Below are positions 18,844 through 50,537 of a stretch of 53,857 nucleotides of DNA, piece after piece. Numbering within the stretch: position 1 is the stretch's first letter; the number at the start of each line of letters is the position of its first letter. A model generated the notes under the pieces. The model worked only from the letters and a program-made list of their open reading frames with translations, ran no database searches and was not told the origin of the DNA. The position numbers and the translations under genes are program-made. Location: positions 141,419 through 195,275 of the forward strand of contig LCQK01000002.1 in assembly GCA_001004105.1 (NCBI GenBank), in the 5' to 3' direction. Origin of the DNA: Candidatus Jorgensenbacteria bacterium GW2011_GWB1_50_10. GTDB taxonomy: Bacteria > Patescibacteriota > Minisyncoccia > UBA6257 > GWB1-50-10.

Positions 18844-18865
18844 GAACAATTCCATAGAATTGTTC
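18844..18865. repeat. Palindrome GAACAATTC-CATA-GAATTGTTC
   Basis: 9-bp perfect arms, just downstream of the ArsR gene 18876-19154. A sister copy lies at 19186-19207. Confidence 0.8.
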
Positions 18866-18875
18866 AATGAACTTT

Positions 18876-19154: not shown

Positions 19155-19185
19155 CTTATTATAATTATAATATTATAACACCATA

Positions 19186-19207
19186 GGACAATTCTATGGA
19201 ATTGTTC
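19186..19207. promoter_or_regulatory. Imperfect palindrome GGACAATTC-TATG-GAATTGTTC upstream of the ArsR gene (candidate operator)
   Basis: One mismatch between the arms. Lies 32-53 nt upstream of the ArsR start at 19154. Confidence 0.45.
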
Positions 19208-19220
19208 AATGAGGATTATT

Positions 19221-19547
19221 CTAATTTTTGGTGGCTAAGCTAACCCATTCCGTGAAAACCTCCCGGTCTTCCAGAATTTCTTCCGGCACAGACCAGTAAG
19301 GGAGTTTGACTGGCTCCGGGTGGCTTTTTTTAACGTAATCAAACTGCTTGCCGCCTTTTTCCTCAAATACCCGGCTAGTTTCTTTGTTTCCTTTGAAATA
19401 CAAATCGCTATCAATTATGAACGCAAAAATTTTGCCGTTCTTGTAGATTCCCCACCCGGAGAACATCGGCCGCGAAACAACACCGTCTATCCCGCCCAAA
19501 AGGTCGTAGAGGACGTAGTCGTGAAAGCTCTTATCGCGTTTTAGCAT
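19221..19547 (-). CDS. TfoX N-terminal domain protein
   Basis: 108 aa. VVSRPMFSGWGIYKNGKIFAFIIDSDLYFK matches the TfoX_N pattern. The stop codon sits inside a junction-motif copy (GCCACCAAAAATTAG). Confidence 0.65.
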   Translation of the reverse strand: MLKRDKSFHDYVLYDLLGGIDGVVSRPMFSGWGIYKNGKIFAFIIDSDLYFKGNKETSRVFEEKGGKQFDYVKKSHPEPVKLPYWSVPEEILEDREVFTEWVSLATKN

Positions 19548-19554
19548 TAACTTA

Positions 19555-19575
19555 TCTCTCCTAATTTTTTGGTGG
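19555..19575 (-). repeat. Junction motif copy (CCACCAAAAAATTAGGAGAGA)
   Basis: Minus strand: CCACCAAAAAATTAGGAGAGATAAGTTA-ATG (TfoX start). Here GGAGAG is at Shine-Dalgarno distance from the ATG. Confidence 0.8.
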
Positions 19576-19591
19576 TACTCTTAAATATAAC

Positions 19592-19623
19592 ATGGCCCGG
19601 GAAACCTGCGTTTCCCGGGCCAT
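19592..19623 (-). terminator. Strong hairpin after the thioesterase gene
   Basis: ATGGCCCGGGAAAC-GCAG-GTTTCCCGGGCCAT (14-bp stem) followed by GUUAUAUUU on the minus strand. Confidence 0.5.
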
Positions 19624-19636
19624 ATTTTCCTCCAAG

Positions 19637-20008
19637 CTACTTGAGCTTTGCCCGGATTTCGTCGGGAATCCGAGCCGGGCCTTCGCTCGTCGTGAGGACC
19701 ACGACGAGCTTCATCTCCGCCGCGACCACGCCGTCTTTGGTGGCCGCCTGGTAATAGGTTATGCTCGTGTTGCCGACGGAAACCTCGGTCGTGATTTCCA
19801 CCTCGTCGCCTTCGCGAAGCTCCTGGTGATAAGCAACCTCCATGAGCTTCACGGGGCTTCGCAGGCCGAACAGCTGCTCAATCGCGGCAAAACCGATGCC
19901 GCGCTCGTTCATGAACGCGTCCTGAGCCGGCTCGAACAAACGCGGGTAGGCCTTGTAGTTCTTGTGGCAGTATTCATCAATATCCGAGCCATCGACGACG
20001 ACTTTCAT
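19637..20008 (-). CDS. Hotdog-fold acyl-CoA thioesterase-like protein
   Basis: 123 aa. Size and pattern fit the 4HBT/YbgC-like family, but the assignment is weak. Confidence 0.45.
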   Translation of the reverse strand: MKVVVDGSDIDEYCHKNYKAYPRLFEPAQDAFMNERGIGFAAIEQLFGLRSPVKLMEVAYHQELREGDEVEITTEVSVGNTSITYYQAATKDGVVAAEMKLVVVLTTSEGPARIPDEIRAKLK

Positions 20009-20063
20009 AGAAACCTCCGTATCTACCGGTTACACTAGGATGTGCCTGATTGCGATGTTCCAA

Positions 20064-20092
20064 ATACAAAAAAGCACATTATGTGCTTTTGG
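20064..20092 (-). terminator. Intrinsic terminator downstream of the ArsR-like gene and a junction motif
   Basis: Minus strand: AAAAGCACA-UAA-UGUGCUUUU followed by UUGUAUUU. Confidence 0.6.
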
Positions 20093-20102
20093 TCAATTAA
20101 TT

Positions 20103-20122
20103 ACTCTCCTAATTTTTGGTGA
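20103..20122 (-). repeat. Junction motif copy (TCACCAAAAATTAGGAGAGT)
   Basis: Same orientation as the other copies. Followed by a terminator rather than by a start codon. Confidence 0.8.
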
Positions 20123-20131
20123 TTGTTTTCT

Positions 20132-20169
20132 ACAATATTCTAACATTCTTAAGAATGTTAGAATATTGT
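20132..20169. repeat. 38-bp perfect palindrome ACAATATTCTAACATTCTT|AAGAATGTTAGAATATTGT
   Basis: Checked base by base. Overlaps the last codons and stop of the wHTH gene 20158-20424. Confidence 0.9.
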
Positions 20170-20424
20170 CATAAACTTGAAGAAAGATTCGCCGTAAGGC
20201 GAGAGCGTGTGGGTCACTTGCCGACCTTGATATCTTTTGTTCAAAAGACCAGCCTGGACTAACCGGCGAGTATGCTGGGAAATATTTTTGAAATCAGCGC
20301 CAAGCTCATCGGCAAGTCCCTCAACGGAAATCCCTTCGTTTCTTTCAACCGTCAACAAAATGGCTATCCGCCAGTGATTAGCTGCTCCTTTGAAATATCG
20401 TTCAAGTTGTTTGGGTGTCTTCAT
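20158..20424 (-). CDS. ArsR-like winged-helix transcriptional regulator
   Basis: 88 aa. GAANHWRIAILLTV...SVEGLADELGADFKNISQHTRRLVQAGLL is HTH-like. Confidence 0.65.
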   Translation of the reverse strand: MKTPKQLERYFKGAANHWRIAILLTVERNEGISVEGLADELGADFKNISQHTRRLVQAGLLNKRYQGRQVTHTLSPYGESFFKFMTIF

Positions 20425-20447
20425 ATCTTTCTATTTTGTCATTGTAC

Positions 20448-20487
20448 CACAACACTCCAACATTCTATAGAATGTTGGAGTGTTGTG
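20448..20487. repeat. 40-bp perfect palindrome CACAACACTCCAACATTCTA|TAGAATGTTGGAGTGTTGTG
   Basis: Checked base by base. Lies between the start of the wHTH gene and the 3' end of the DUF559 gene. Confidence 0.9.
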
Positions 20488-20527
20488 ATATACTCCCCCT
20501 TGAATACAATGAAGTCTCCGGCGGTTG

Positions 20528-21262
20528 TTAGCGAGCGGCTTTTTGAATTTTCCTCAAGCAGGCCTCCGCGTTCTCAATAATCTCCCGTTCCTTAAGGCGG
20601 ATGACCCGCCAGCCGGCTCGCCGGAGACAAAAATCTTTCACTCTGTCCCGGCGCTTCTGGAGTTTGCCGGCATGAGCCTTTTTATTATCGCATTCAATGG
20701 CCAGACGCCGGTTGCGGCGGACAATCGCAAAATCCAGGCGAAAACGTTTGCCGCAGGCGGAAACCGGAAATTCCGATAGGGCTTTAATGCCCCAGCGCCG
20801 GAGACAGCGGCCGATAATCTCCTCAGTCGGCATAATGTCGTAGAGCTCCAAAATATTCCGGCTTGAGAGCAGGTTTTTCAAAGTTGTGAAACCGAAAGAA
20901 ACGCGGCGGGGAACGATGTTCCTCACGGGCCGCGGCAGTTTCTTTAGTTCCTTAAATTCGAGTTTCAGGTAATCATCTTTGGCCCGCGGATGACCGATTC
21001 CTTCTGGCAGAAGTTTAATCCTCTTATAAACTTTCCGCCGGGAGACCCTAGCATAGTATTCTATTCTTTTGCCGTGCCGGCCAAAAACCGCCGGCTGGTA
21101 GAAAGCAACGTATTTAAATTTCCGTTTGGGCAGGAAAGCAAGGGGAATTCGGTACCAGCGCTCACAAAAAAGGATACGCCGGTCGCTCCTGCTCTTCAAA
21201 ACACTGACCAAAACGTTTTTATTATTCAACTTCTTTTTAACCATCACGGCTCGCCTTTTCAT
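20528..21262 (-). CDS. DUF559 (Vsr/PD-(D/E)xK-like) endonuclease-domain protein with unknown N-terminal domain
   Basis: C-terminus FRLDFAIVRRNRRLAIECDNKKAHAGKLQKRRDRVKDFCLRRAGWRVIRL fits the DUF559 pattern. Start moved to the ATG at 21262 (MKRRAV...), because the track start at 21280 lies inside a palindrome. Confidence 0.65.
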   Translation of the reverse strand: MKRRAVMVKKKLNNKNVLVSVLKSRSDRRILFCERWYRIPLAFLPKRKFKYVAFYQPAVFGRHGKRIEYYARVSRRKVYKRIKLLPEGIGHPRAKDDYLKLEFKELKKLPRPVRNIVPRRVSFGFTTLKNLLSSRNILELYDIMPTEEIIGRCLRRWGIKALSEFPVSACGKRFRLDFAIVRRNRRLAIECDNKKAHAGKLQKRRDRVKDFCLRRAGWRVIRLKEREIIENAEACLRKIQKAAR

Positions 21263-21264
21263 TT

Positions 21265-21304
21265 CACAACATTCCAACATTCTATAGAATGTTGGAATGT
21301 TGTG
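21265..21304. repeat. 40-bp perfect palindrome CACAACATTCCAACATTCTA|TAGAATGTTGGAATGTTGTG
   Basis: Differs from 20448-20487 only at a symmetric pair of positions (C>T and G>A), so the dyad stays perfect. Confidence 0.9.
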
Positions 21305-21319
21305 GTGCTTTAAGGATAA

Positions 21320-22630
21320 CTAATCACTGGGGATTAGTCTTTTAAATCGGGAACGGATCCCTCCGGTTTGTCTGCCAAGTTCTTTTGCCAGCACTGTTTC
21401 TTCCGATTTTCTTTGCAGTTCGGCATCAAACTCTAAAATTTCCGGGTGGACCTCAAGAGATTTTTCGTTAAACCCAAGAAGCTTCATTCCGTCAAGCGTT
21501 CGAACTCTTGAGAGCGCCACGTACCCCATACCTCTTTCAAAAGCGGCCGATAGATCAATCAAGGCGGCATCCAGCGTAATTCCCTGACTTTTGTGAATGG
21601 TAATCGCCCAAGCGAGACGGAGCGGAATTTGAGTAATTTTGGCGAGCCGTTTGCCGTTTTCCTCAACCATCCAGCTCTCCGGAGAAACACTGATATTTCT
21701 GCCTTTTAGGGTGATTACTCTGGGGTGGCCTTCTTCACTAAAGCCGACCACCCGGCCAAGCGTCCCATTCGCATATCCTTTCTCAAAATTGTTTTTAACG
21801 AACATTACTACGGCATCTTTTTTCAAAACTAAATTTTCGGGGGCGAGGCAACCGTTTTTCAAGGACTGTACAATGGCGGGAACACCGTGTGTTTCCATCC
21901 GATAATTTACCTCCTCTCCCGGCAAGCGCTGAAGTTCACGGAAGTTCTCCGCATCCACATCGGCGTTGTGCGAATAAAGTTTGGTAACGCGCCCGTTTGG
22001 CAAGTTCGCGTCGCACCGTCCGCGCAGACGGATTCTTATACTTTCATTAACCTCCGTGCGCCGAATGGCATTTAACACTTCGGAAAGTTTTTCGTCTCCA
22101 TGCCGGTGTTGCTCGTCAAGGTAACAAACTTTAAGACCAAGTTCTTCCCAAGCCGTAGAACGATACGCAAACTGCGGCGGGGGCTCATTTTCGTTCGCAA
22201 CCGGCGGGAGTTGAAAAAAATCGCCGCAGAGCACCACCTGCATTCCGCCAAAGGGTTCTTTGCCTCTCACGGCTCTTGCCACCCTATCAACCAATGAGAG
22301 GCGAGCCGCATCAAGCATGGAAACCTCGTCAATAATAAGCGTCTCGGTTTTGGCAAGACGCTTGGCAACCCTGCGGTTTGCCGCAAACATCCTAACTTCT
22401 TTATCTGAAGCGGTGCGTGAAATCCCGATTCCCGCCCAGGAGTGGATTGTAATTCCGCCAAGATGCGTGGCGGCAATGCCGGTTGAGGCGGTAATCCCGA
22501 CGTCGGTTTTTTTCTTCCGCAAGAACTCAATGTATTCGTTTAGAAGGTAAGTTTTTCCGCTGCCGGCGGCTCCGGTAAGATAAACGTTGTGGCCGGCTTT
22601 TAAAATTTCAAAAGCTTCTTTTTGAGTCAT
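21320..22630 (-). CDS. PIF1/RecD-like (SF1B) ATP-dependent DNA helicase
   Basis: 436 aa. Walker A GAAGSGKTY, Walker B LIIDEVSM, a CGDFFQLPPV motif and the C-terminal AITIHKSQG...YVALSR. Confidence 0.8.
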   Translation of the reverse strand: MTQKEAFEILKAGHNVYLTGAAGSGKTYLLNEYIEFLRKKKTDVGITASTGIAATHLGGITIHSWAGIGISRTASDKEVRMFAANRRVAKRLAKTETLIIDEVSMLDAARLSLVDRVARAVRGKEPFGGMQVVLCGDFFQLPPVANENEPPPQFAYRSTAWEELGLKVCYLDEQHRHGDEKLSEVLNAIRRTEVNESIRIRLRGRCDANLPNGRVTKLYSHNADVDAENFRELQRLPGEEVNYRMETHGVPAIVQSLKNGCLAPENLVLKKDAVVMFVKNNFEKGYANGTLGRVVGFSEEGHPRVITLKGRNISVSPESWMVEENGKRLAKITQIPLRLAWAITIHKSQGITLDAALIDLSAAFERGMGYVALSRVRTLDGMKLLGFNEKSLEVHPEILEFDAELQRKSEETVLAKELGRQTGGIRSRFKRLIPSD

Positions 22631-22637
22631 AAATCTA

Positions 22638-23045
22638 TTCTCCTAATTATATCTCAAAGAAAAAACGGCGCCGTTTTGATTACGGCGCCGCGGCGCGAAC
22701 TCTGGTTTCATGCGTCATCTCCTCCCGAATTCAAACGTTACCCTGTTTGCGGGCACGGTGTTTGATATCTTGGAGGAGAGTTTCGCCAGCACTTCATGGC
22801 CGGGGAACGGTCCCGAGAGCATCACGATTGGGGTGTAGGTCTTGGCATCACCCTGGACCCCGGCCGAGAAGATGCCCTCCGGGACTTCAACGGCAAGACC
22901 GTGCGGTCCTGGTGCACGTCAGACCAATCCCAGTCGCTGGGCTTGAATTCAAACGGCATTTATTCCTCTCTTCTGGGTACTAATTATCTTTTACTCCCCG
23001 CAGTGAGAAAAATCAATCCTAATCTACTCTCCTAATTTTTTGGCG
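22638..23045 (-). repeat. GC-rich ~410-bp repeated element, copy 1 (frameshifted small ORF or structured RNA, plus own terminator)
   Basis: Near-identical to 25921-26340. On the minus strand it has a junction motif, SD+ATG (22959) MPFEFKPSDWDWSDVHQ..., then a second frame GLAVEVPEGIFSAGVQGDAKTYTPIVMLSGPFPGHEVLAKLSSKISNTVPANRVTFEFGRR-stop (22715). A terminator GGCGCCGU-AAUCAAA-ACGGCGCC+GUUUUUUC follows (22655-22690). Confidence 0.85.
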
Positions 23046-23064
23046 AGCAGGTTCTGTTTATCAA

Positions 23065-23298
23065 CTATCCTCTTAACCATTCTGCTTGAGAAATCCCTGA
23101 CTGACGAATGATGCCTTTTAAGGTGCGCGGTTTTAGAGTTCTTGAACCGTGAAAGGGCACACATACCTGCCGAAAAGCGCCGCCGGCGTGACCGGCATAA
23201 AAATAATGACTCCCTTTCGTATGGTTTAAACGGAAATCGTGCGCCTTCAAAAAACGCACGACGTCTTCAGCCGTCCAATTATGTAGGCCTCTCGGCAT
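23065..23298 (-). CDS. hicA: HicA-family mRNA interferase toxin
   Basis: 77 aa. VVRFLKAHDFRLNHTKGSHYFY...VPFHGSRTLKPRTLKGIIRQSG fits YcfA/HicA. The gene is 1 nt downstream of the HicB-like ORF. Confidence 0.75.
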   Translation of the reverse strand: MPRGLHNWTAEDVVRFLKAHDFRLNHTKGSHYFYAGHAGGAFRQVCVPFHGSRTLKPRTLKGIIRQSGISQAEWLRG

Positions 23299-23299
23299 A

Positions 23300-23632
23300 T
23301 TACGCCGGCACCAAAGCCCGACCGCCCAGAATGTTCATCCTTCCGGCAAAAAATACCGAATTCGGCTGCCGCTTCGCTTGTATGCTGCCACGCCACTTTT
23401 CTTCGTATTCCCTGTCCACAGCTTGATTCAAAATGTGCGGCCGTGCCTTAGTTTTCTTGGCGGATTCCAAATACCCCTGCACCGCTTCAAAAAGAAGGAG
23501 CATTGCCTCCCGGGACGTATCTCCTGTTTCCACGATATTGAATTCCAAAGCAACCGCGTACCAAACGCCTGCTTCCCTAAACACCAAAATACGAACCGAA
23601 CCCCTCTGTAAGGTATTCTTGTACTTAGCCAT
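23300..23632 (-). CDS. hicB: HicB-like antitoxin
   Basis: 110 aa. ILVFREAGVWYAVALEFNIVETGDTSREAMLLLFEAVQGYLE has a HicB/UPF0150-like fold signature and is paired with hicA. Confidence 0.6.
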   Translation of the reverse strand: MAKYKNTLQRGSVRILVFREAGVWYAVALEFNIVETGDTSREAMLLLFEAVQGYLESAKKTKARPHILNQAVDREYEEKWRGSIQAKRQPNSVFFAGRMNILGGRALVPA

Positions 23633-23638
23633 AGTTAC

Positions 23639-23668
23639 ATTATAAACATATCAAGAGAAATTAATCAA
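23639..23668 (-). promoter_or_regulatory. Putative promoter giving a leaderless hicB transcript
   Basis: Minus strand: TTGATT-18 nt-TATAAT, then only 6 nt (GTAACT) before the ATG at 23632. Confidence 0.4.
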
Positions 23669-23678
23669 AAAACCTAGG

Positions 23679-23699
23679 TTTCTCCTAATTTTTTGGTGG
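23679..23699 (-). repeat. Junction motif copy (CCACCAAAAAATTAGGAGAAA)
   Basis: Begins 11 nt after the glycosylase stop. Followed by the mini-hairpin AACCTAGGTT plus a T-run. Confidence 0.8.
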
Positions 23700-23709
23700 T
23701 TACAATTCA

Positions 23710-24678
23710 TTATAACCTTATCTCTTTTTCCAGCCACGGGATTTTTTCGTTCTTTCTCCTCCAAAAAACGTCTTCCCAAATGTAATGAACCGCAAGCATT
23801 GAATATTTGCCGTATCGCTTCAGAATGTCATCGCGAATTTTCTTCGCAGGCACCGACTTCTTTCCATAAAACAATCTGGAATATATTTTCTGCTGCCACG
23901 GGGCGATATGCTCAAAAGTATCGTAATGGTGGTAGGCCTCAAAAAGAAGAATGCGGGCGGTTTCCGGCCCCACACCATAAAGTTTCATTAATGCTTCCTT
24001 TGTGCTTTCCTTATCAAGCTGGCGGAGTTTATACTCATCAACTCTCCTACTGGTAAAATCATGCGAAAGGCGTCTGATGAATTTGGCGCGATAACCGACT
24101 TTCAAATCTCGGAGTTTCTGCTCCGAAACTTCTTCCAAATCTTCGGGAAGCCAAATTGCCCAAAGTTTCTTCTTATCAAATTCAATTTTTGTCCCGAATT
24201 TCCCGAGGAGAGCATCCAGCATCTGCTGACTTCGCCGGACCGTGGTATTTTGGAGAACGATGGCAATAATAAGGAGTTCGTAAAGAGTGTATTGGCTCGC
24301 GTTCCTCATGCCCAGCCATTTTTTGAAAATCGGATAAAATCGCCTGTCTTTCCTAGCAAGACCGTTAAATTCCTTCAAGTCAGCGTATAGTTCAAAACGC
24401 CACGCTATCTCATTTTTCAATTGCTCTACTTCCTTGTCCGTAAAATCTCTGTTTGAATAAAATAAGACTTTCAGTTTTGGCTTTGCCACCGTTCCGGCAT
24501 TTTCTATTTTCAAGCCATAAAGTCTTTTGCCAAAGCGTAATCCCTGCCAATATTTGCCGGGTTCCCAATCATCAAGCTTCAATTTATTGGGAAAATGTGA
24601 CGGCTTATGAAAAGTCCCGTCAAAATGAAAAGGCGCTTTTGGAGCAATATTAAAATTTCTCTTGTGACTTAACTTCAT
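23710..24678 (-). CDS. HhH-GPD superfamily DNA glycosylase (AlkA/Ogg-like)
   Basis: 322 aa with the helix-hairpin-helix LMKLYGVGPETARILLFEA followed by an Asp-containing segment. Confidence 0.6.
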   Translation of the reverse strand: MKLSHKRNFNIAPKAPFHFDGTFHKPSHFPNKLKLDDWEPGKYWQGLRFGKRLYGLKIENAGTVAKPKLKVLFYSNRDFTDKEVEQLKNEIAWRFELYADLKEFNGLARKDRRFYPIFKKWLGMRNASQYTLYELLIIAIVLQNTTVRRSQQMLDALLGKFGTKIEFDKKKLWAIWLPEDLEEVSEQKLRDLKVGYRAKFIRRLSHDFTSRRVDEYKLRQLDKESTKEALMKLYGVGPETARILLFEAYHHYDTFEHIAPWQQKIYSRLFYGKKSVPAKKIRDDILKRYGKYSMLAVHYIWEDVFWRRKNEKIPWLEKEIRL

Positions 24679-25304
24679 TAAAGTTTTACCTCTTCGCCCT
24701 CACCTACTAAGGTATATAAATCGTTTTCAACTAAAATTGCTTGTCCGTCTCGTAAAATTCTTACGGGATGCGATGCTGTCTTTATCTTTTCCCTAAATAA
24801 ATTTTCCAATTCATCTTTATAATGTACTTTCAAGAGAAAGGGTACGAGGTTTAATCCAGTAAAATCAGTTAATCCATAGTCATCTTTTTTATCTGGTCCC
24901 CACGTTGAGGTTTCAATTGTAGGGCATACTATGTACGCGCCCGCGCTCGTTCCGACATAGATAACGCCTCTTAAAACCAATTCTTTAAGAACTTTATCGC
25001 ATCCGCTTTCTTTGATAGCCTTCAGAAGGTAAAAAGTATTACCTCCCTCAACGTGGATAACGTTTTTCCCACTAAAAAGCGCGTCTAATTCATTCAAGCT
25101 TTTCCCTTCAACGTCCATCTCTTCAAAGTCTAGTCCATTTGCGTGCATGCTTTTTTTGTGGTTCTCCAGATAATTTAGATCTCGCGCCCCCTTCGAGGCG
25201 GTGGTGATATAAGCAATTCTAATATGATCTTTCGGGACTCCTAAAAGATCATAACCTTTTTCAATCAGAAATTTACCATTTGATGCAAGTAGAAGTTTTT
25301 TCAT
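24678..25304 (-). CDS. pepE: Peptidase E / S51-family dipeptidase-like protein
   Basis: 208 aa. GGNTFYLL and the nucleophile context VYVGTSAGA are typical of S51 peptidases. Confidence 0.65.
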   Translation of the reverse strand: MKKLLLASNGKFLIEKGYDLLGVPKDHIRIAYITTASKGARDLNYLENHKKSMHANGLDFEEMDVEGKSLNELDALFSGKNVIHVEGGNTFYLLKAIKESGCDKVLKELVLRGVIYVGTSAGAYIVCPTIETSTWGPDKKDDYGLTDFTGLNLVPFLLKVHYKDELENLFREKIKTASHPVRILRDGQAILVENDLYTLVGEGEEVKL

Positions 25305-25326
25305 ATCTTTTTAATTTTAAACACCT

Positions 25327-25346
25327 ACTCTCCTAATTTTTGGTGG
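25327..25346 (-). repeat. Junction motif copy (CCACCAAAAATTAGGAGAGT)
   Basis: GGAGAG lies about 25 nt upstream of the pepE ATG, too far for a simple ribosome-binding-site role. Confidence 0.8.
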
Positions 25347-25358
25347 TTTTCTTAATAT

Positions 25359-25392
25359 GACATTCTAACATTCTGCAGAATGTTAGAATGTC
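25359..25392. repeat. 34-bp perfect palindrome GACATTCTAACATTCTG|CAGAATGTTAGAATGTC
   Basis: Checked base by base. Shares the AACATTCT...AGAATGTT core with 20132, 20448 and 21265. Confidence 0.9.
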
Positions 25393-25395
25393 TAA

Positions 25396-25914
25396 TCACA
25401 ATTCGAATTCGTGGACGGAGGTGTTACCGATGTGGTCCAGTTCTTCTTTTTTATGCAAATAATGTATCAATCTTATTATGCCGCCGTGGGTCACGACAAG
25501 AACGGTTTTATCGGGATAACTCTCTTTAACCTCCTTTATGAATTTCTCAAGCCGAGCTTTAACATCTTCCACTGATTCGCCGCCGTAGGGACGGTAGTCG
25601 TACTCTGGGTCACCAATACCCATTCTCTCCCCTTTTTCCCGCGCTTTACCTGATAAAGACCCTATATCGTGTTCCTTGAGATAATCACTAAAAATCAGTT
25701 TCTTATTGAATCGCTCCGCGATAATTTCCGCGGTCTCTTTAGCACGTTTCAGCGGTGATGAAAAAATGACGTCAAAATTATCTTCCAACTGATTAGCCAA
25801 TTCCCTGGCCTGATTCAAGCCCGCTTCGTTCAAAGATTCGTCTATCCGCTGACCCATTCGTCGGCGCAGTTTATTGTATTCCGTTTCCCCGTGCCGGACA
25901 AAAATGAATTTCAT
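25396..25914 (-). CDS. Histidine phosphatase family protein (phosphoglycerate-mutase-like)
   Basis: 172 aa with the RHGETEYN catalytic motif at the N-terminus and a later HGG. Confidence 0.8.
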   Translation of the reverse strand: MKFIFVRHGETEYNKLRRRMGQRIDESLNEAGLNQARELANQLEDNFDVIFSSPLKRAKETAEIIAERFNKKLIFSDYLKEHDIGSLSGKAREKGERMGIGDPEYDYRPYGGESVEDVKARLEKFIKEVKESYPDKTVLVVTHGGIIRLIHYLHKKEELDHIGNTSVHEFEL

Positions 25915-25920
25915 GGATTT

Positions 25921-26340
25921 ACTCTCCTATTATATCTCAAAAAGTAGCGGCGCCGTTTTGATTACGGCGCCGCGGTGCGAACATCGGCTCTCTGCGTTAT
26001 CTCCTCCCGAATTCAAACGTTACCCTGTTTGCGGGCACGGTGTTTGATATCTTGGAGGAGAGTTTCGCCAGCACTTCATGGCCGGGGAATGGTCCCGAGA
26101 GCATCACGATTGGGGTGTAGGTCTTGGCATCACCCTGGACCCCGGCCGAGAAGATGCCCTCCGGGACTTCAACGGCAAGACCGTGCGGTCTCCTCGGTTA
26201 GTCCCTGGTGCACGTCAGACCAATCCCAATCGCCGGGCTTGAATTCAAACGGCATTTATTCCTCCCTAGAAGTACTAACTATCTTTTACTCCTCGCAATA
26301 AGAAAAATCAATTCTAATCTACTCTCCTAATTTTTTGGCG
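25921..26340 (-). repeat. GC-rich ~420-bp repeated element, copy 2
   Basis: Same layout as copy 1: ATG at 26255, C-terminal frame stop TAA at 25997-25999, terminator 25938-25973. It carries a 14-nt insertion (GACTAACCGAGGAG) relative to copy 1. Confidence 0.85.
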
Positions 26341-26344
26341 GATT

Positions 26345-27028
26345 CTATTTTCTTCTAATAATCAGTTCTTCCTCGGGGTTATCTTTTTTGAGATTTTCAA
26401 TCAAGGTTTTGGCTACAGAACCGGGATCCATATACTTGTCATAATCCTCCGGCATCTTTTCATCAAAAAGGTGGGTTCTCATTCCGCCTGGATATACTGC
26501 CAATATCTTGATTTTCTCCGGTTGCGCCTCGAGGCGAAGCGATTTAGTAAAGCCGACTGCGGCATACTTGCTCGCAACATAACCGGATGAACCGGCACGG
26601 CCCTGGAGCGCGCTTGTTGATAGAATATTGACTATTGTGCCAGAGTGCTGTTTCTTCATTTGAATTAGAGCTACCCTTGAACCATGAATTGTGCCAAACA
26701 AATTAACTTCCACCATATCATGGACTCTTTTCAAATCCATTTCCTCCGCCGGCGCGTGAGGAACCCAAATACCGGCGTTGTTAACCCATACGTCAATTTT
26801 GCCGAATTTTTGGACGGCGAAATTGGCTAATTTGACCACCTCATTTTCATCAGTTACGTCTGCAGTAAAAACAGCAGCATTTAGTTCCCGACCGGCATTA
26901 TCTAACTCTGTGCCGCTGCGCGAGCTTAAAATTAATTTTGCGCCTTCTTTAGCAAAAGCAGCGGCTAAGGCCTTACCAAATCCCCCACTAGCCCCTGTTA
27001 TCACAACAATTTTGTCTTTAATAACCAT
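26345..27028 (-). CDS. Short-chain dehydrogenase/reductase (SDR)
   Basis: 227 aa with the cofactor motif TGASGGFG, NNAG, and the catalytic YVASK. Confidence 0.85.
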   Translation of the reverse strand: MVIKDKIVVITGASGGFGKALAAAFAKEGAKLILSSRSGTELDNAGRELNAAVFTADVTDENEVVKLANFAVQKFGKIDVWVNNAGIWVPHAPAEEMDLKRVHDMVEVNLFGTIHGSRVALIQMKKQHSGTIVNILSTSALQGRAGSSGYVASKYAAVGFTKSLRLEAQPEKIKILAVYPGGMRTHLFDEKMPEDYDKYMDPGSVAKTLIENLKKDNPEEELIIRRK

Positions 27029-27040
27029 ATAAATAAATCT

Positions 27041-27062
27041 ATTCTACTAATTTTTTGGTGGG
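27041..27062 (-). repeat. Junction motif copy, variant (CCCACCAAAAAATTAGTAGAAT)
   Basis: Overlaps the HAD gene C-terminus (…NPPKN-stop) and precedes the SDR ATG. Confidence 0.75.
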
Positions 27063-27640
27063 TTCAAAATCTCTCTCGTTTTTTCGGCGCTTTCGAATAA
27101 GTAAGATTTTATACCTAGGCCGTTTGCTACCGCAACGTTGCCCGGCGAATCATCAAAAAAGACGCACTCTTCCGGTTTTAAATTGTTTTCCTCAAGCAGT
27201 TTTTGGTAAGCGCCAGCATTGCTCTTTGTAAAACCGGTCTGCCATGAATAATAAACCTTCTCAAAAAGCTCTTTTAGAAACGGAAAGTTGTTATTGTAAA
27301 ATTTTGTTCTCTCAATAACGTTGTTCGAAAGAATGAAAAGTTTTACTCCCCTATCTTTCAATTCTCTGGCCAGTGATATCATTTCCGGAGCTTCTTTTTC
27401 GCCCGAAAACCAAAAGTCGAAGAAAGCTTCTTTTGATAAATCTAACCCCCACTTGTCAAAATATGGCTTCCAATAAGAAAAAGCGTCGCCGGCATCAGGC
27501 ATTCTCACTTTGGGCATAATAGCGTTCAGGGCTGGCAAAAATTCTTCTTGTTTGACACCAAATTTTTCCTCAAAACGTTCGCTCAACTTTCGGCTTTTTA
27601 TGAAGACGCCGTTTAAATCAAAAATAACAGCTTTAAACAT
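27047..27640 (-). CDS. HAD-superfamily hydrolase
   Basis: 197 aa with VIFDLNGV (motif I position), LSNN, and FFDDSPGNV (motif IV). Confidence 0.7.
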   Translation of the reverse strand: MFKAVIFDLNGVFIKSRKLSERFEEKFGVKQEEFLPALNAIMPKVRMPDAGDAFSYWKPYFDKWGLDLSKEAFFDFWFSGEKEAPEMISLARELKDRGVKLFILSNNVIERTKFYNNNFPFLKELFEKVYYSWQTGFTKSNAGAYQKLLEENNLKPEECVFFDDSPGNVAVANGLGIKSYLFESAEKTREILNPPKN

Positions 27641-27654
27641 GATATTTTGAATCT

Positions 27655-27674
27655 ACTCTCCTAGTTTTTGGCGA
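27655..27674 (-). repeat. Junction motif copy (TCGCCAAAAACTAGGAGAGT)
   Basis: Starts 3 nt after the Fic stop codon. Followed by AGATTCAAAATATC-ATG (HAD). Confidence 0.8.
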
Positions 27675-27677
27675 CCG

Positions 27678-28331
27678 TTACCTCCTACGTCTCTTTGCTT
27701 TAAAATACTCTAATTTCTTTCTTAGAGCTATCACGTAATTTTTCCTTTTGTGCTCTTCCAAACCGTCTATAATTATGTTTTCCAAACTGGAATAATTGCC
27801 GTCATCTGTCTGACGCATGGCCCTCAAGTATTGCGGCTTTTCTTTTTTAACGGCAATACTGGGCAAACCGGCTCGCATCAGAATCGCATCAATTAGTAAA
27901 CGCGAGGCGCGCCCATTGCCGTTTCTAAAAGGATGGATAGATGCCAAACGATGCGATAATTTCGCCGCCACGAATACTATTTTCTTGTATTCTTTTTCCG
28001 TTTTTGGTGGTTTTATATTTCTTGTTGCTTCTCTCAATTCATAGTCCAATTCGGCTATTTCGTTTGGAATATTTTTCCAATCGGTCATCTTTAAGGGCGT
28101 GCCGTCAATTCTCCGGAGATCCTGACTATTATCTTTCCGGTACTTGCCGCCGATCCCAGGTTGGCGCGCCACTGTAAATATAATCCTGTGCGCCTCCTTG
28201 ATGTACCGAATTTCAACAGGAAATTTCTTACGCAATAATCTCTTTATAATCCGATGTAAATAAGAATGGGCCTCCCAAAGGCCCTTTTCTTCAAGAATAT
28301 CTATGTCCTTCTTGCTTAACGAGCTTTGCAT
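27678..28331 (-). CDS. Fic-domain protein (AMPylase/toxin-like)
   Basis: 217 aa with the canonical Fic motif HPFRNGNGRASR. Confidence 0.85.
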   Translation of the reverse strand: MQSSLSKKDIDILEEKGLWEAHSYLHRIIKRLLRKKFPVEIRYIKEAHRIIFTVARQPGIGGKYRKDNSQDLRRIDGTPLKMTDWKNIPNEIAELDYELREATRNIKPPKTEKEYKKIVFVAAKLSHRLASIHPFRNGNGRASRLLIDAILMRAGLPSIAVKKEKPQYLRAMRQTDDGNYSSLENIIIDGLEEHKRKNYVIALRKKLEYFKAKRRRR

Positions 28332-28348
28332 GCAAAATAAACTATCCC

Positions 28349-28537
28349 TTAAAGAATAGCTCGCCGGGCTTCCTCCTTTGAAAGCTTATTGCCCTCCAAT
28401 TTATTGGAATAATAAACCGATTCGAAATTTTGCTCTTTATTCAAAACGGCTTTCTCAACTGGCGAAAGTTTGGGTAATTTCTGGATTTTTTTATCTAAAT
28501 CCAGAAGCTTCTTTATTTTCCTGTCGATTTTTTTCAT
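28349..28537 (-). CDS. Small protein carrying the Fic inhibitory-helix motif (antitoxin-like)
   Basis: 62 aa ending YYSNKLEGNKLSKEEARRAIL. SNKLEG fits the (S/T)xxxE(G/N) inhibitory motif. Lies 17 nt upstream of the Fic gene, in a different frame. Confidence 0.6.
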   Translation of the reverse strand: MKKIDRKIKKLLDLDKKIQKLPKLSPVEKAVLNKEQNFESVYYSNKLEGNKLSKEEARRAIL

Positions 28538-28555
28538 GAGAACCTTAGCAAGTAT

Positions 28556-28584
28556 AATATAGAATATTGTTTACTTTATGTCAA
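28556..28584 (-). promoter_or_regulatory. Putative sigma70-type promoter for the Fic module
   Basis: Minus strand: TTGACA (28584-28579)-17 nt-TATATT (28561-28556), about 20 nt before the ATG at 28537. Confidence 0.45.
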
Positions 28585-28623
28585 ATCCGAAAATAGCTCC
28601 CAAATATATCTTTATTGTAACAT

Positions 28624-28643
28624 ACTCTCCTAATTTTTGGTGG
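28624..28643 (-). repeat. Junction motif copy (CCACCAAAAATTAGGAGAGT)
   Basis: Starts 1 nt after the stop of the 87-aa membrane protein gene. It is the last copy before the AT-rich operon. Confidence 0.8.
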
Positions 28644-28908: not shown

Positions 28909-28912
28909 AAAT

Positions 28913-29302
28913 CTACCTCTCCCATTCCTTGATATCGGGTGAAAAGTCCAACTGGTAATCCGGGATACCTAAAGAGATACCGTACGCTGTTGCGGCATCG
29001 TATTCTTCTTTTTTGGTCCTGTCCACTTTAAAAACCTTGCCGCGGAAAATTATGAAGTGGATATCGTCATTTTTGAAATCCGCGTACCAGTTGTGTTCGC
29101 TGTCCAACGACCAGCTAAGTTTTTCTGCGATGCTCTCGGCTTGGTTCTCTGGAATCTCAACCGTGTGGAGCGTCCACTGCTTTATCCACGGCGTTTTGTG
29201 ATTTTCCGTCACCGGCTCAACTTTGGTGCCCAAAACCCGCACGTCCTTCAAAACATCCTTATTCTCCAAACTTTCTTCAATTATCACGCCTTGGTAGTTC
29301 AC
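28913..29302 (-). CDS. Hypothetical protein
   Basis: 129-aa acidic soluble protein with no motif I recognise. Tightly packed within the AT-rich operon. Confidence 0.5.
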   Translation of the reverse strand: MNYQGVIIEESLENKDVLKDVRVLGTKVEPVTENHKTPWIKQWTLHTVEIPENQAESIAEKLSWSLDSEHNWYADFKNDDIHFIIFRGKVFKVDRTKKEEYDAATAYGISLGIPDYQLDFSPDIKEWER

Positions 29303-29321: not shown

Positions 29322-30026
29322 TTATCTGAAGCCCATATTTTTCAACGTCAAAAGACATTCACTAGCTTCTATACACTCGTAGTATAGAGAAATTTCCTCA
29401 ATCAGTGCTGGTCTTAGAGAAGAAACAAAAGTTAGTAACTCAACTTCTGCTTTATTTCTGAAAAACTGAAACCAATCCACGTGTAATGGAACCCTCAATT
29501 CGGAGTAAGGAACCGATTGGAGGTAAGGAATATTATCCAGTGTATATAATAACTCTGTCTTATCACCTTTTGGTATCGGTAAGCTCTCCTTCCTAAACAA
29601 GTGTCCTCCGCTGTTGTCCAATTTTACATAAATACTTTCCCATCTAGTCAGCGCCTTACTATCTAGCGATGCTCGAACATAAATATACGCTTTAGCCAAA
29701 TCTCCTCGATCAAGAATTATAACTTTCCTAATTTTTTCATCCTGCGTATTCGCTCCTGGAGTCCAACTTTCAAAATCACTGACAACAACTAGTTTCTCCA
29801 GACGCGATAAAGAGTCGAAGTCTGGAAATTCTGATGGTTTTGAGAGTGTTTGCTCGACGCGGTTAACCACCTGTTCAGTAACGCTCTGACTAATCCTTTG
29901 AGTTAACTCCGCTTCCTTCTCTTGGCTCTCAAACTGCTGTTTAAAAGCAAGAAAAATTAGAACTGAGGCGAAAAGGAATAGAAATATAGTAACACCTGTA
30001 TTTGCCCTTTTTTTTGGGTCACTCAT
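29322..30026 (-). CDS. Membrane-anchored hypothetical protein
   Basis: 234 aa with a single N-terminal TM helix (GVTIFLFLFASVLIFLAF) and then a soluble domain of unknown family. Confidence 0.55.
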   Translation of the reverse strand: MSDPKKRANTGVTIFLFLFASVLIFLAFKQQFESQEKEAELTQRISQSVTEQVVNRVEQTLSKPSEFPDFDSLSRLEKLVVVSDFESWTPGANTQDEKIRKVIILDRGDLAKAYIYVRASLDSKALTRWESIYVKLDNSGGHLFRKESLPIPKGDKTELLYTLDNIPYLQSVPYSELRVPLHVDWFQFFRNKAEVELLTFVSSLRPALIEEISLYYECIEASECLLTLKNMGFR

Positions 30027-30031
30027 GATTT

Positions 30032-30448
30032 TTAATTATTATCTTTCAACTTTTTAGAAGAATAACTGGGCGGTAAAAGTATAAAGAATATATTAAGAAT
30101 ACTTAGAAAAAATATCCAGAAATTTAACATCGGTCGCTCAAAATCATAGAAAAATTCTCCTTTTATCAAATAAGTTATCCAAGCTGGCATCTTAGATTTT
30201 ATAGCGGACCATAAAAAAACTAACAGCCCCATAAAAATTAAGATAATAGCATTTGACAGTAACACGTCAGTTATAGGTAAAATCTTCTTGACAATCAAGT
30301 AACCTAATAAAAACCAAAGCAATTGTGCGGTTATGGCTCTAAAATACAAAGCAGCGCCTCCCTGCGACTCAACCCGTAAACGAAACTCGGAATGGAAATC
30401 CTGAATACGTTCTTTTAATCCTCTAAAACTACTGATTTTTTTGTTCAT
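30032..30448 (-). CDS. Polytopic membrane protein, unknown function
   Basis: 138 aa with 3-4 hydrophobic helices. Confidence 0.5.
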   Translation of the reverse strand: MNKKISSFRGLKERIQDFHSEFRLRVESQGGAALYFRAITAQLLWFLLGYLIVKKILPITDVLLSNAIILIFMGLLVFLWSAIKSKMPAWITYLIKGEFFYDFERPMLNFWIFFLSILNIFFILLPPSYSSKKLKDNN

Positions 30449-30463
30449 TTGGGTTGCGGCGGG

Positions 30464-31027
30464 TTATCTTCCCCTATGTGTAGCTATAGAAACAATTTTA
30501 AAAATATCTTCTCCTCTTTTTAAAGCTTCTAAAAGTCTTCGGAACATATATGCATCCGCCATATTAGTTTTTTCTTGAATCATTAATAATTTGGCCAGTA
30601 ATATTAGAAACTCTATTCTATACTCACCATACTGACTAATGCTTTGGTATTGTTTTATTTTATTTCCGTGCTTATAAAGAAGGTTTTTAATATCTAATAT
30701 TTTCTTTCTATCCGATTTACTTTTTATTGGAGTTGTCTTCTTCCATATATCTAGTAAGAAACCCAAAAATTTCTTTATTTTTCCTTTATCTGCGTGCATT
30801 TTAATTAGAAGATCAACGGCCCAATGAATGTGTTTTGGTGTTCTTATATTAGACCACTTTCCATTTTTTAATCCCTGGCGGTATTTTATTAAAATGTCAT
30901 ATTTACTTAAGCTGCCTTGATAAACTCCTACAATAATATTCTTTTCGGGAATAAAAATCCTGATCGGTTTGTGAGCCTTTCCTTCTTTGTTAAAAACCAT
31001 CTTTATTCCCGGGTCTTTTACGTTCAT
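30464..31027 (-). CDS. Hypothetical protein (positional candidate for the methyltransferase partner, e.g. endonuclease)
   Basis: 187 aa, Lys-rich and AT-rich. Its start lies 1 nt after the methyltransferase stop. I can find no defensible nuclease motif. Confidence 0.45.
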   Translation of the reverse strand: MNVKDPGIKMVFNKEGKAHKPIRIFIPEKNIIVGVYQGSLSKYDILIKYRQGLKNGKWSNIRTPKHIHWAVDLLIKMHADKGKIKKFLGFLLDIWKKTTPIKSKSDRKKILDIKNLLYKHGNKIKQYQSISQYGEYRIEFLILLAKLLMIQEKTNMADAYMFRRLLEALKRGEDIFKIVSIATHRGR

Positions 31028-31028
31028 A

Positions 31029-32153
31029 CTAATAGTTCATTATCACAAGCTCGCTGATTTTACCGCGTTTACTTCCATCGCAGTTGATAAATCTACTTGC
31101 ACTTACCGTTTCAATTCTGTACTTTTTGTATAAATCCTTTATAAATTTAGTATTAGAATTACTCAACATAACCTTGCAACCTTTTTCATCTAAAGCTCTA
31201 AAAATATCGGCCAATTTAGCTTGCTCTTTCTCGAGAAAATCCTCACTTGTATAAGTGGTAAATTTAGCGGTCTTAGTGAGTGGGTAATAAGGGGGGTCAA
31301 AATATATAAAATCATCTTTCTTTACCCTATCTATAATCTTCTCAAAAGACTCAGCATAAAGTTTTACATGCTTTAGAGCTTTACTGGTTGATCTTAAATT
31401 TTGCTCGTCTAGGATACCCGGATTTTTGTACTTCCCGGACGGCACATTAAACTCTCCTTTACTATTAACTCTATAAAGACCGTTAAAACCGGTTTTGTTT
31501 AGATATATAAAAGCTGCAGTTCGCTCAATCTTATTTAAAACATCGCTGTTATAATCGTCTCTAACTTGGTAATAGAACTTTTGGTCATGGTTATTTTTGT
31601 ATTCGTTTAAGACTTTAATAAGATTTTCTACATTATTCTTAATGACTATGTATGTGTTTATTAAGTCTCTATTAAGATCCGACAAAATTGCGCTCTCCGG
31701 CCGTAAATAAAAGAAAACTGCCCCGCCACCAACCATCGGTTCAAAATAGGTATTGTAAGTGTATCGTGGAGGAAAAAATCTAGCATATTGACTAAGTAAC
31801 TGATTCTTACCACCAGCCCATTTAACAAAGGGTTTAAGCTCATATTCTTTAGCACTATTGCCGTTCAATCTTCTAGCTAATTCAGAAGCGGCTCTAATTT
31901 GGACAGCTTTAGCTGAACCTATACCCCTAATTTTAGTTAGTTCTGGAACGGAGGCCTTAGATATATTTTCTAAACCTCTAAATTTGGCCCATAGTCTCTC
32001 AACCGTTACGGCAATAGATTCACCACGAGCGCCTTTCCCTAATAAGGCCATCAAAAGCTCCTTATCGCTAATATTATGAGTCCCTTTTCTAATAATCTTT
32101 TCCCTAGGTCGAAGTTCTAGTGGTAAATCTTTTATAGTGAAGGATTTAGCCAT
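31029..32153 (-). CDS. RadC N-terminal (HhH) domain fused to a Dam-type N6-adenine DNA methyltransferase
   Basis: Residues ~10-95, LRPREKIIRKG...ISDKELLMALLGKG...LTKIRGIGSAKAVQIRAASELARRL, resemble the RadC N-terminus without the JAB domain. These are followed by PFVKWAGGKNQLL, FEPMVGGGAVFF and the catalytic FDPPY. Confidence 0.75.
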   Translation of the reverse strand: MAKSFTIKDLPLELRPREKIIRKGTHNISDKELLMALLGKGARGESIAVTVERLWAKFRGLENISKASVPELTKIRGIGSAKAVQIRAASELARRLNGNSAKEYELKPFVKWAGGKNQLLSQYARFFPPRYTYNTYFEPMVGGGAVFFYLRPESAILSDLNRDLINTYIVIKNNVENLIKVLNEYKNNHDQKFYYQVRDDYNSDVLNKIERTAAFIYLNKTGFNGLYRVNSKGEFNVPSGKYKNPGILDEQNLRSTSKALKHVKLYAESFEKIIDRVKKDDFIYFDPPYYPLTKTAKFTTYTSEDFLEKEQAKLADIFRALDEKGCKVMLSNSNTKFIKDLYKKYRIETVSASRFINCDGSKRGKISELVIMNY

Positions 32154-48132: not shown

Positions 48133-48133
48133 T

Positions 48134-48394: not shown

Positions 48395-48401
48395 GGCTTG
48401 T

Positions 48402-48796: not shown

Positions 48797-48839
48797 AATT
48801 ACTTAATAATACCACGAATATTTCACAAAAATCAACCAA

Positions 48840-50513: not shown

Positions 50514-50537
50514 CTTAATTTGAGACAGTATGACGCG

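Follow-up and report, generated by a model that had tools for sequence, protein, structure and literature searches.

Along 9.7 kb (19.2-28.9 kb) of the 53,857-nt stretch of DNA analyzed here (the window; positions 141,419 to 195,275 of contig LCQK01000002.1, Candidatus Jorgensenbacteria bacterium GW2011_GWB1_50_10), nearly every gene junction of an accessory island is occupied by a full or partial copy of one short sequence, designated M. We tentatively read M as the repeat at the junctions of a cassette-like accessory-gene array found in one clade of Parcubacteria, within the candidate phyla radiation (CPR), and as a supplier of stop and start signals, a reading held with somewhat less than even confidence. 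The anatomy of the array, its confinement to the island, the identity of M across genomes, and the module boundaries that fall at M are observed directly. On the gene strand, the ten copies between 19215 and 28643 read CC(A/G)CCAAAAA(A)TTAGGAGAGT(AGATT), which can also be written CC(A/G)CCAAAAA(A)(T/C)TAGGAGAGT(AGATT). M is ~26 nt long, with a conserved block of 20-27 nt and sharp edges; its left half, CC(A/G)CCAAAAAA, is the best-conserved part, and its right half occurs in three further solo copies. All copies share one orientation, that of the gene strand, which here is the minus strand carrying nearly all genes of the window.

A first-pass annotation, made from the sequence without database searches, had listed ten such sites on the minus strand, and every one was found in place by direct reading and by a profile hidden Markov model (HMM) built from the copies themselves. 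Its two partial copies proved real (22633-22648 and 25917-25929), and a third right-half copy was found at 28909-28923. The copies are as follows, with the full or left-half copies numbered W1 to W10 in the direction of transcription.

28909-28923, minus strand: right-half-like copy GGGAGAGGTAGATTT-ATG, holding the stop of a 129-aa gene and lying before an 87-aa gene; upstream edge of the array.
28620-28643, minus strand: W1, beginning 1 nt past the 87-aa gene's stop; a TTGACA-17-TATATT promoter, a 62-aa gene and Fic come next.
27650-27673, minus strand: W2 (CGCCAAAAACTAGGAGAGTAGATT), between Fic and a HAD hydrolase gene.
27037-27061, minus strand: W3, whose TAG is the HAD stop (...NPPKN*); GGAG mutated to GTAG; short-chain dehydrogenase (SDR) gene next.
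26316-26341, minus strand: W4, beginning 3 nt past the stop of SDR; copy 2 of a duplicated unit with a 106-aa gene has its left edge here.
25917-25929, minus strand: right-half copy TAGGAGAGTAAATCC-ATG, before His_Phos_1, with TATAAT 5' of it.
25323-25346, minus strand: W5, after the His_Phos_1 gene and a hairpin (palA); Peptidase_S51 next.
23681-23699, minus strand: W6, 10 nt after the stop of an HhH-GPD-like gene; followed by a TTGATT-18-TATAAT promoter and hicB-hicA.
23021-23045, minus strand: W7, beginning 19 nt past the stop of HicA; copy 1 of the duplicated unit with the 106-aa gene has its left edge here.
22633-22648, minus strand: right-half copy TTAGGAGAATAGATTT-ATG, before PIF1, with TATAAT replacing the A-run; homology with the PIF1 locus of a relative (L120) ends here.
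20099-20121, minus strand: W8, after a MarR-like gene and a palA hairpin; a terminator lies directly 3', followed by a GC-rich thioesterase gene.
19555-19575, minus strand: W9, after the thioesterase terminator hairpin; the TfoX_N ATG lies 13 nt past TTAG.
19215-19234, minus strand: W10, left half only, whose TAG is the TfoX_N stop (...ATKN*); abuts the conserved, probable promoter/operator of an arsR-like gene (palB).

Chance was rejected as an explanation: a 15-mer of M with at most two mismatches gave 7 matches against 0.12 expected, a number reached in 0/100 shuffles, and the profile HMM matched only in accessory clusters. Across 253 kb, comprising the window together with related and unrelated CPR loci, all matches with E < 0.001 lay on the gene strand and within an accessory-gene cluster. 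The profile HMM detected no M in the other 44 kb of the window or in the 10 kb past each end (L248, L252), which together make up ~64 kb of core genes; restriction to the island and absence beside core genes, both raised in the first-pass annotation, thus hold over this range. A generic ribosome-binding site or promoter was rejected because M is missing from these 44 kb and the 20 kb of extra flank, and because core genes lack Shine-Dalgarno (SD) sequences.

The window belongs to a Rifle groundwater population of Parcubacteria, and proteins identical to its own occur in ENA ERZ909588 contig k127_36561 (162 kb), GCA_001003655.1 and GCA_001002095.1. Most of it consists of core genes (murF, ftsI, mraZ, rplJ/rplL, dnaJ/dnaK/grpE, serS, mreBCD, and proS), and the accessory island covers ~19-33 kb, where GC content is low and uneven. 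M-to-M spacing ranges from 340 to 2531 nt, and the inserts (0.06-2.5 kb among the loci compared) are genes. In the direction of transcription, the array comprises a 62-aa open reading frame (ORF) with Fic; the HAD hydrolase; the SDR; a 106-aa GMP_synt_C-like gene; a His_Phos_1 phosphatase; Peptidase_S51 with an HhH-GPD-like gene; HicB and HicA; a second 106-aa gene; a PIF1 helicase with MTES_1575 nuclease-like and MarR-like genes; a 4HBT thioesterase; and TfoX_N. A conserved ArsR-like gene comes after the last M copy, and directly 5' of the array lie small unknown genes, a type II Dam-class methyltransferase, a MazE-like ORF and an NYN nuclease. Pfam assignments bear out the claim that M separates unrelated single-domain families, and the GC content at third codon positions (GC3) of the separated genes spreads from 0.34 to 0.78. 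At the upper end is the thioesterase gene (19637-20008), with a GC of 0.59 (genome, 0.47) and a GC3 of 0.78, its own GGAGG 6 nt 5' of ATG, terminator hairpins on either side, and complete M cores flanking it. It has the look of a gene recently imported from outside the CPR.

Within the array, the stop codon upstream of M is closer to it than the ATG that follows. It begins 1, 4, 3, 10, and 19 nt past the stop at five junctions and itself supplies the stop at two (HAD and TfoX_N, as noted in the first pass), placing 7/10 copies 0-19 nt from the stop; the rule that M follows the stop by 0-20 nt thus stands at seven junctions and fails at the remaining three, where a hairpin precedes M and the distance is 36-61 nt. 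From TTAG to the next annotated ATG, the distance varies between 13 and 100 nt, and in several cases a sigma-70-like promoter (28584-28556; 23668-23639) or a terminator (20090-20070) intervenes, again as first described. M was unpaired in DNA folds at 10/10 junctions; a hairpin lies upstream in only 3/10 and corresponds to a perfect palindrome or a terminator. These folds of the ten junctions showed no dyad symmetry, inverted-repeat arms or hairpin in M itself, and no Rfam covariance model matched it, the only matches being spurious miRNA hairpins to palA, all below gathering score.

The same features bear on the idea that M is an RNA-processing or translation re-initiation site in long polycistrons. 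W2, W3, and W4 do lie inside a single predicted transcription unit (promoter 28584 to terminator 25947), M is single-stranded and A/U-rich, and RNases (HicA, NYN) are encoded nearby. Several copies, however, follow terminators or precede promoters and hence stand outside any polycistron (W9 and W5 come after hairpins), and M matches no Rfam family; we consider this explanation extremely unlikely.

M-bearing loci were compared from four sources (the window; L120/L269/L270; L091; and L046), with roughly 26 copies in all. Three loci beyond the window carry several true M copies among the matches listed, always on the gene strand. In the relative represented by L120, L269, and L270, whose PIF1 is 91% identical, at least ten copies lie within 4.4 kb; in L269, this 4.4 kb of a 17.5-kb locus contains all of them. 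L091 has three copies between a zinc-ribbon ORF, a NUDIX gene, HicBA pairs, and an unknown gene, and the only DNA it shares with the window is M, which matches window 26341-26316 at 26/26 positions. In L046, a Jorgensenbacteria metagenome-assembled genome, two complete M cores flank a single GrpB-like gene adjoining a type I hsdS gene; here there is also 73-75% identity to the window over part of the HhH-GPD gene. The same M core therefore separates different genes in different genomes. Its right half differs by genome: all L120 copies have TAAAT where the window has TAGATT. No M was found in loci around PIF1 homologues of 64-73% identity or in the loci of other, more distant relatives. Restriction-modification genes adjoin the array in the window, L120, and L046.

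Exact-pattern matches in public collections were mostly single, at chance level or coding look-alikes, S11 C-termini (RPPKIRRV*) and ordinary ribosome-binding sites among them. A scan of public genome contigs returned 49 single matches and one true further locus (L046); a metagenome scan, in which an unrelated Faecalibacterium site made up most of the matches listed, added at least L120 and L091. In a few other CPR genomes (L016 4840-4870, L020, L115, L023), the last codons of rpsK (S11; ...RPPKIRRV*) and the rpsD start form AGGCC(A/G)CCAAAAATTAGGAGAGTATAA, identical to the M core. Derivation of M from the rpsK 3' end was rejected as probably a coincidence between an AT-rich coding sequence and a ribosome-binding-site-like string, since the rpsK of L271, a relative with one M-like copy, ends differently (PRPRKVRRV*). 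The L016 match (Roizmanbacteria) was likewise set aside as a coding look-alike, as was that at L046 1818, which is a duplicated hsdS 5' end (PTKKLGE). Around the latter (1800-1835 versus 2288-2325), the first hsdS codons (MTYPTKKLGE) are duplicated 5' of a GGCT/AIG2-like gene, as if this gene had been inserted into the hsdS 5' end; the duplicate mimics M (CCAACAAAAAATTAGGAGAA).

Several module boundaries coincide with M. A ~400-nt unit occurs twice in the array.

22627-23045, minus strand: duplicated unit copy 1, comprising M, a leader, the 106-aa GMP_synt_C-like gene, a terminator and TATAAT; behind HicA.
25911-26341, minus strand: duplicated unit copy 2, with the same anatomy; behind the SDR gene.

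The two copies agree at ~94% of positions in the 3' 280 nt and at ~90% in the 5' 150 nt, and identity runs from CGCCAAAAAATTAGG to the TAGGAGA just 5' of the next ATG, such that both edges fall at M. The 106-aa protein, whose similarity to GMP_synt_C is weak, had no homologue outside this population in a relative search. Both window copies of its gene appear broken, with 60-76 nt missing internally by comparison with further assemblies of this population (contig L050), and GCA_001003655.1 (L051) has a yet larger deletion; either the assembly collapsed where the repeat is most divergent or the heterogeneity is real, and M is unaffected. A second boundary lies upstream of PIF1. At 91% DNA identity between the window and L120, upstream identity ends at AATTAG (the TTAG of M), beyond which the window continues with the duplicated unit and L120 with a palindrome-containing (palB) module plus an M left half. 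PIF1 and arsR are adjacent in L120, whereas MTES, MarR, thioesterase, and TfoX_N intervene in the window, the last two as M-bounded units between W8, W9, and W10. In L120, modules without an ORF are also present, arranged as M(GGCAAG variant)-palB-M-palC-M. The complete M cores around the thioesterase and the L046 GrpB-like gene, and the GC3 spread of the array genes, likewise speak for M as a module boundary. Two independent short contigs, L262 (Ga0103680_10051560) and L264 (Ga0208958_1082433), join HicA, the 106-aa unit, and His_Phos_1, the junction that would be expected from a circle or a tandem duplication formed by recombination between the two unit copies.

Palindromes recur beside M, and those in the window are located as follows.

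25359-25392: palA palindrome preceding W5.
20125-20176: palA palindrome preceding W8.
20445-20490 and 21265-21304: further palA copies, in the start or promoter regions of MTES and the MarR-like gene.
19164-19212, minus strand: palB, probable promoter/operator of the ArsR-like gene (TTGAAC...TATAAT), conserved in four lineages; downstream end of the array.

The palA family comprises long perfect palindromes, AACATTC(T/C)AACATTCT-N3-4-AGAATGTT(A/G)GAATGTT, before or after island genes. In five cases from three genomes (the window, L120, and L271), the M left half follows palA at a fixed distance, giving the composite palA-GTAGAAGGAAA-CCA(A/C)CAAAAAATTAGG. Because MTES and the MarR-like gene have starts or promoters that overlap with two of the copies, palA may be an operator of the MarR-like protein. 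The palindrome of palB, TTGAACAATTCCATAGAATTGTTC, is fused to TATAAT upstream of the 88-aa ArsR-like gene in four lineages (window 19164-19212 and 18844-18870; L120 6800-6845; upstream of arsR in L271 and L273) and is probably an autoregulated promoter/operator of this gene. In L120, additional palB copies lie between M copies, and palB modules have M-like ends (a GGCAAG variant on the left and GGAGAG on the right).

These associations raise the possibility that M belongs to small selfish or neutral intergenic repeats of the repetitive extragenic palindrome or bacterial interspersed mosaic element type (REP/BIME), or of the miniature inverted-repeat transposable element (MITE) type. The true unit would then be a palindrome plus flank (palA-M, ~75 nt; palB module, ~65 nt) spreading into gaps, and solo M copies would be fragments without host function. 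The E. coli BIMEs are mosaics of palindromic units, much like the combinations of M, palA, palB, and palC, and M shares with these repeats and with MITEs such as the Neisseria Correia elements a mosaic of palindromic units and short conserved motifs in post-gene gaps, along with lineage specificity. The fixed spacing of palA and M, the single palA-M copy in the array-less relative L271, the M-like ends of palB modules, and the genome-specific variants of M all agree with this explanation. REP/BIME and MITE repeats, however, are dispersed genome-wide with the palindrome as their core unit, whereas M is clustered in one island, mostly solo, orientation-locked to genes, and devoid of symmetry, the palA-M composite providing a partial link. 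No palindrome lies close to most of the window copies (W1-W4, W6, W7, W10), M lacks terminal inverted repeats and a short target duplication, and no RAYT, IS200 or other transposase was seen. By comparison, we find this origin quite unlikely.

Alternatively, M could be an asymmetric operator whose bound protein silences or gates transcription through the island. The analogy is with the stoperators of Cluster A mycobacteriophages, 13-14-bp, one-orientation sites in short intergenic gaps throughout the phage genome that block elongating RNA polymerase through a known binding protein. Like the L5 gp71 sites, M occurs in many short asymmetric copies in short intergenic gaps or on stop or start codons; its orientation is locked to the direction of transcription, and its sequence is highly constant whatever the distance to ATG. 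Winged-helix regulators are found in or beside the arrays (ArsR-like and MarR-like in the window; two ArsR-family genes in L120), and the island's toxins (HicA, Fic) and restriction-modification genes would profit from tight control. Set against this, no binding protein is known for M, and no candidate co-occurs specifically with M in the four loci. The ArsR-like regulator is 70-83% identical across many Parcubacteria that lack M (the ArsR loci there are array-less, L271 alone having one palA-M-like copy), and its likely operator is palB rather than M. Nor would an operator explain the duplication edges and the ORF-less modules, and we therefore rate it very unlikely.

An SD 5-mer (AGGAG or GGAGG) is present within 20 nt of the start in 0/42 genes outside the island, and GGAG or GAGG in 3/42, against a background of 12%; rplJ, rplL, and dnaK lack SD sequences. 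In many genes outside window 19-29 kb, TATAAT stands 5-11 nt before ATG, which suggests leaderless mRNAs, and core genes accordingly seem to rely largely on leaderless or SD-independent translation. The anti-SD sequence is missing from about half of Parcubacteria (PMC9297842). The absence of rplK and rplA upstream of rplJ fits the Parcubacteria subgroup that lacks both uL1 and the anti-SD. Since core genes are SD-less, in agreement with the reported loss of the anti-SD (PMC9297842), the SD-like GGAGAG is peculiar to M in this host. M is thus not the organism's ordinary start signal, and the statement that it is not simply a ribosome-binding site is upheld, as M also tracks upstream stops more closely than starts.

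Even so, M could be purely an expression signal, that is, a conserved leader or translation-initiation element read by the ribosome or a dedicated factor for special accessory genes, with the copies far from ATG being decayed relics. We regard this as possible but doubtful, while treating an expression or translation role for the right half as a live rival, given that M often lies 9 nt before ATG in relatives. M contains AGGAG, is unstructured and A-rich, and every start associated with it is ATG, which follows GGAG by ~9-11 nt in "clean" copies (L120 9959 and 6463; L091 2412; window 22633, 25917, and 28909). In two copies, a perfect TATAAT right after a terminator takes the place of the A-run, and this position can therefore perhaps act as a -10 box. 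By anatomy, the closest described elements are the start-associated sequences (SAS; 13 nt, GGGATAGGAGCCC) and extended SAS (ESAS) of Cluster K mycobacteriophages (Pope et al., 2011; PMC3203893). Like M, these are asymmetric, contain AGGAG, occur in one orientation and only among accessory (non-structural) genes just 5' of ATG starts, sometimes include the upstream stop, are preceded by an inverted repeat (palA or palB for M) in about half of cases, and are missing from the host genome at large, with their function unexplained (PMC3203893). M resembles SAS/ESAS in behavior rather than in sequence or setting: it resides in a bacterial chromosome instead of a phage genome, its sequence differs (AGGAG alone being common), and it has an additional, best-conserved 5' half and bounds duplicated or rearranged modules. 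SAS is almost always 3-7 nt from the start (PMC3203893), as opposed to 13-100 nt for M in the window.

Several observations are difficult to reconcile with a pure expression signal. Only about a third of the ~26 copies at the four loci are placed to serve a real ATG with SAS-like spacing (mainly those of L120 and L091 and the partial copies), whereas intact cores also precede promoters, terminators, and palindromes (W1, W4, W6, W7, and W8; L120 9204 and 9066; L046 4754). The orthologous PIF1 copy in L120 reads TTAGAAGAAT, in which GGAG has been lost and the rest retained. The left half has no known role in initiation, and the host makes no use of SD sequences even at rplJ and rplL. Finally, the tandem M-palB-M-palC-M would place three start signals in a row, which makes little sense for expression signals.

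For the cassette-array reading, we infer that recombination at M is the cause of this architecture. Each gene, toxin-antitoxin pair or small ORF-less module would be bracketed by direct copies of an unstructured, asymmetric ~26-nt sequence at which DNA joining occurs. Joining may proceed through homologous or short-homology crossover between M copies, including those on DNA arriving from relatives; alternatively, an enzyme encoded elsewhere may insert DNA at M and regenerate or duplicate it. By either route, genes would be gained, duplicated, and reshuffled module by module. About 26 identical bases is close to the minimum for RecA-dependent exchange, and CPR bacteria are thought to take up DNA; pilin genes lie beside the array and TfoX_N lies within it. 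The triplets TAG and TAG/TAA of M are frame-independent stops that would terminate reading frames entering from upstream, and its right half, TTAGGAGAGTA(A/G)ATTT, would offer the next ORF a ready leader, with ATG ~9 nt after GGAG. Because M holds both, any junction at M would be expressible. Given that the right half is genome-specific (TAGATT versus TAAAT), the copies within a genome are probably templated from each other by copying or homogenization.

Integron cassette arrays, such as sedentary chromosomal integrons and attC clusters without an integrase (CALINs), offer the nearest architectural parallel. They too consist of unrelated, mostly small genes, including toxin-antitoxin pairs, in one orientation, with a lineage-specific repeat at each junction that lies on the stop codon or directly past it. 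Some of their units have no ORF, as here, and base composition varies from unit to unit; as in CALINs, no integrase is found near the M array. The attC site, in contrast, is an imperfect palindrome of 57-141 nt that forms a bulged hairpin, whereas M is ~26 nt and predicted to be unstructured, without R''/L''/L'/R' boxes or the GTTRRRY core. Lacking both dyad symmetry and a hairpin, M does not qualify as an attC-type site, and attC or any other structured DNA or RNA was rejected given the unpaired folds and the absence of Rfam matches. Several M units also have their own promoter or terminator, unlike integron cassettes, and no IntI, the tyrosine recombinase that with attI and Pc stands at the head of integron arrays other than CALINs, was found. 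CRISPR arrays and casposon integration, in which the repeat or target is duplicated at each insertion and direct repeats of 23-50 nt alternate with unique inserts, share with M complete repeats on both sides of foreign DNA that retains its native flanks. CRISPR spacers, however, are regular (26-72 nt), whereas M inserts are genes of up to 2.5 kb and no leader is present; no cas1/cas2 or other cas genes were found near M, with only a faint Cas2-like Pfam match ~15 kb away. Nor is M an ordinary SD region, which lies 5-10 nt from the start of most genes and not only in an island. M thus fails the defining tests of integron attC sites, CRISPR, REP/MITE repeats, and ordinary SD regions. A more far-reaching proposal is that M arrays constitute a gene-capture system distinct from integrons, in which an enzyme encoded elsewhere recombines a 26-nt unstructured asymmetric site or duplicates it with every insertion, or transformation is coupled to short-homology recombination, thereby building expressible arrays of accessory, toxin-antitoxin, and defence genes beside restriction-modification loci. 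We consider this unlikely.

Several points weigh against a recombining cassette array. No integrase, transposase or other recombinase was found in the window, its 10-kb flanks, L269, L270 or L046; Pfam revealed no integrase among the genes at 17.9-34.1 kb, and the tyrosine or serine recombinase suggested in the first-pass annotation did not turn up within ~25 kb. M lacks the inverted-repeat arms or hairpin used by tyrosine, serine, and HUH enzymes. Integron cassettes leave as circles and differ in presence between strains, with breakpoints in the site. Comparison of orthologous loci here gave a divided answer, with the breakpoint at M upstream of PIF1 between species, but no single-cassette presence/absence polymorphism among about ten assemblies of the same population. 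The L262/L264 crossover falls within the identical 3' part of the 400-nt repeat rather than at M and may be an assembly chimera. Edges at M are partly unavoidable, since the boundaries of motif-sharing repeats are intrinsically hard to place. The M-bearing loci number at least four, the window included, among the matches listed, and many copies in relatives lie at the canonical 9 nt before ATG, as would suit a pure expression signal. The original suggestion of a cassette array or recombination site is thus borne out in its architecture (confinement to the island, closer tracking of upstream stops than of starts, edges of the duplicated unit, the PIF1 breakpoint, and ORF-less modules) and not in any specific mechanism.

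Other candidates were rejected. A phage origin or a phage RNA-polymerase promoter was dismissed: an IMG/VR scan gave 76 single matches, an estimated chance level, none of them multi-copy, and the window contains no phage genes or single-subunit RNA polymerase. An att remnant of a tRNA or tmRNA 3' end (CCACCA) was excluded by the lack of conservation 5' of CC(A/G)CC and of any tRNA or tmRNA beside an array. A DNA uptake sequence or Chi-like site (GGTGG on the other strand) was rejected because M is not genome-wide. For a Xer/dif-like site, there were no dif-like arms, all sites were direct, and cumulative GC skew was monotonic without a switch.

The surroundings of the array yielded further observations. 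The lowest GC of the window (0.30-0.39) occurs at 29322-32153, where the Dam-class methyltransferase is fused to a UPF0758/RadC-like N-terminal HhH domain and accompanied by three unknown genes, which may include a cognate restriction enzyme. The PIF1-like helicase and MTES_1575/DUF559 nuclease-like genes are neighbors both in the window (20528-22630) and in a distant relative (L257 10001-12245); they match candidate defence families (PDC-S68, RecD-like) weakly and may act together in defence as a two-gene module. At 44642-53493 lie five tandem paralogues of ~560-610 aa with CxxC zinc-ribbon-like N-termini and no Pfam domain. Three further members of this family occupy L120 1-5528, and CutA1 adjoins the family in both genomes.

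CPR bacteria (Patescibacteria) have very small genomes with few recognized mobile elements, and the route by which they acquire accessory and defence genes is poorly understood. If the cassette-array reading is true, M would provide a testable handle on modular gene exchange in these organisms and could reveal a mechanism of recombination or insertion that operates without an attC hairpin or a nearby integrase. As a strong SD-like leader limited to horizontally mobile genes in a host whose core genes, including those for ribosomal proteins, are SD-less, M would also represent a natural experiment on translation initiation in Parcubacteria. Should M serve expression alone, the phage SAS/ESAS motifs, themselves still unexplained, would have in it a cellular equivalent.

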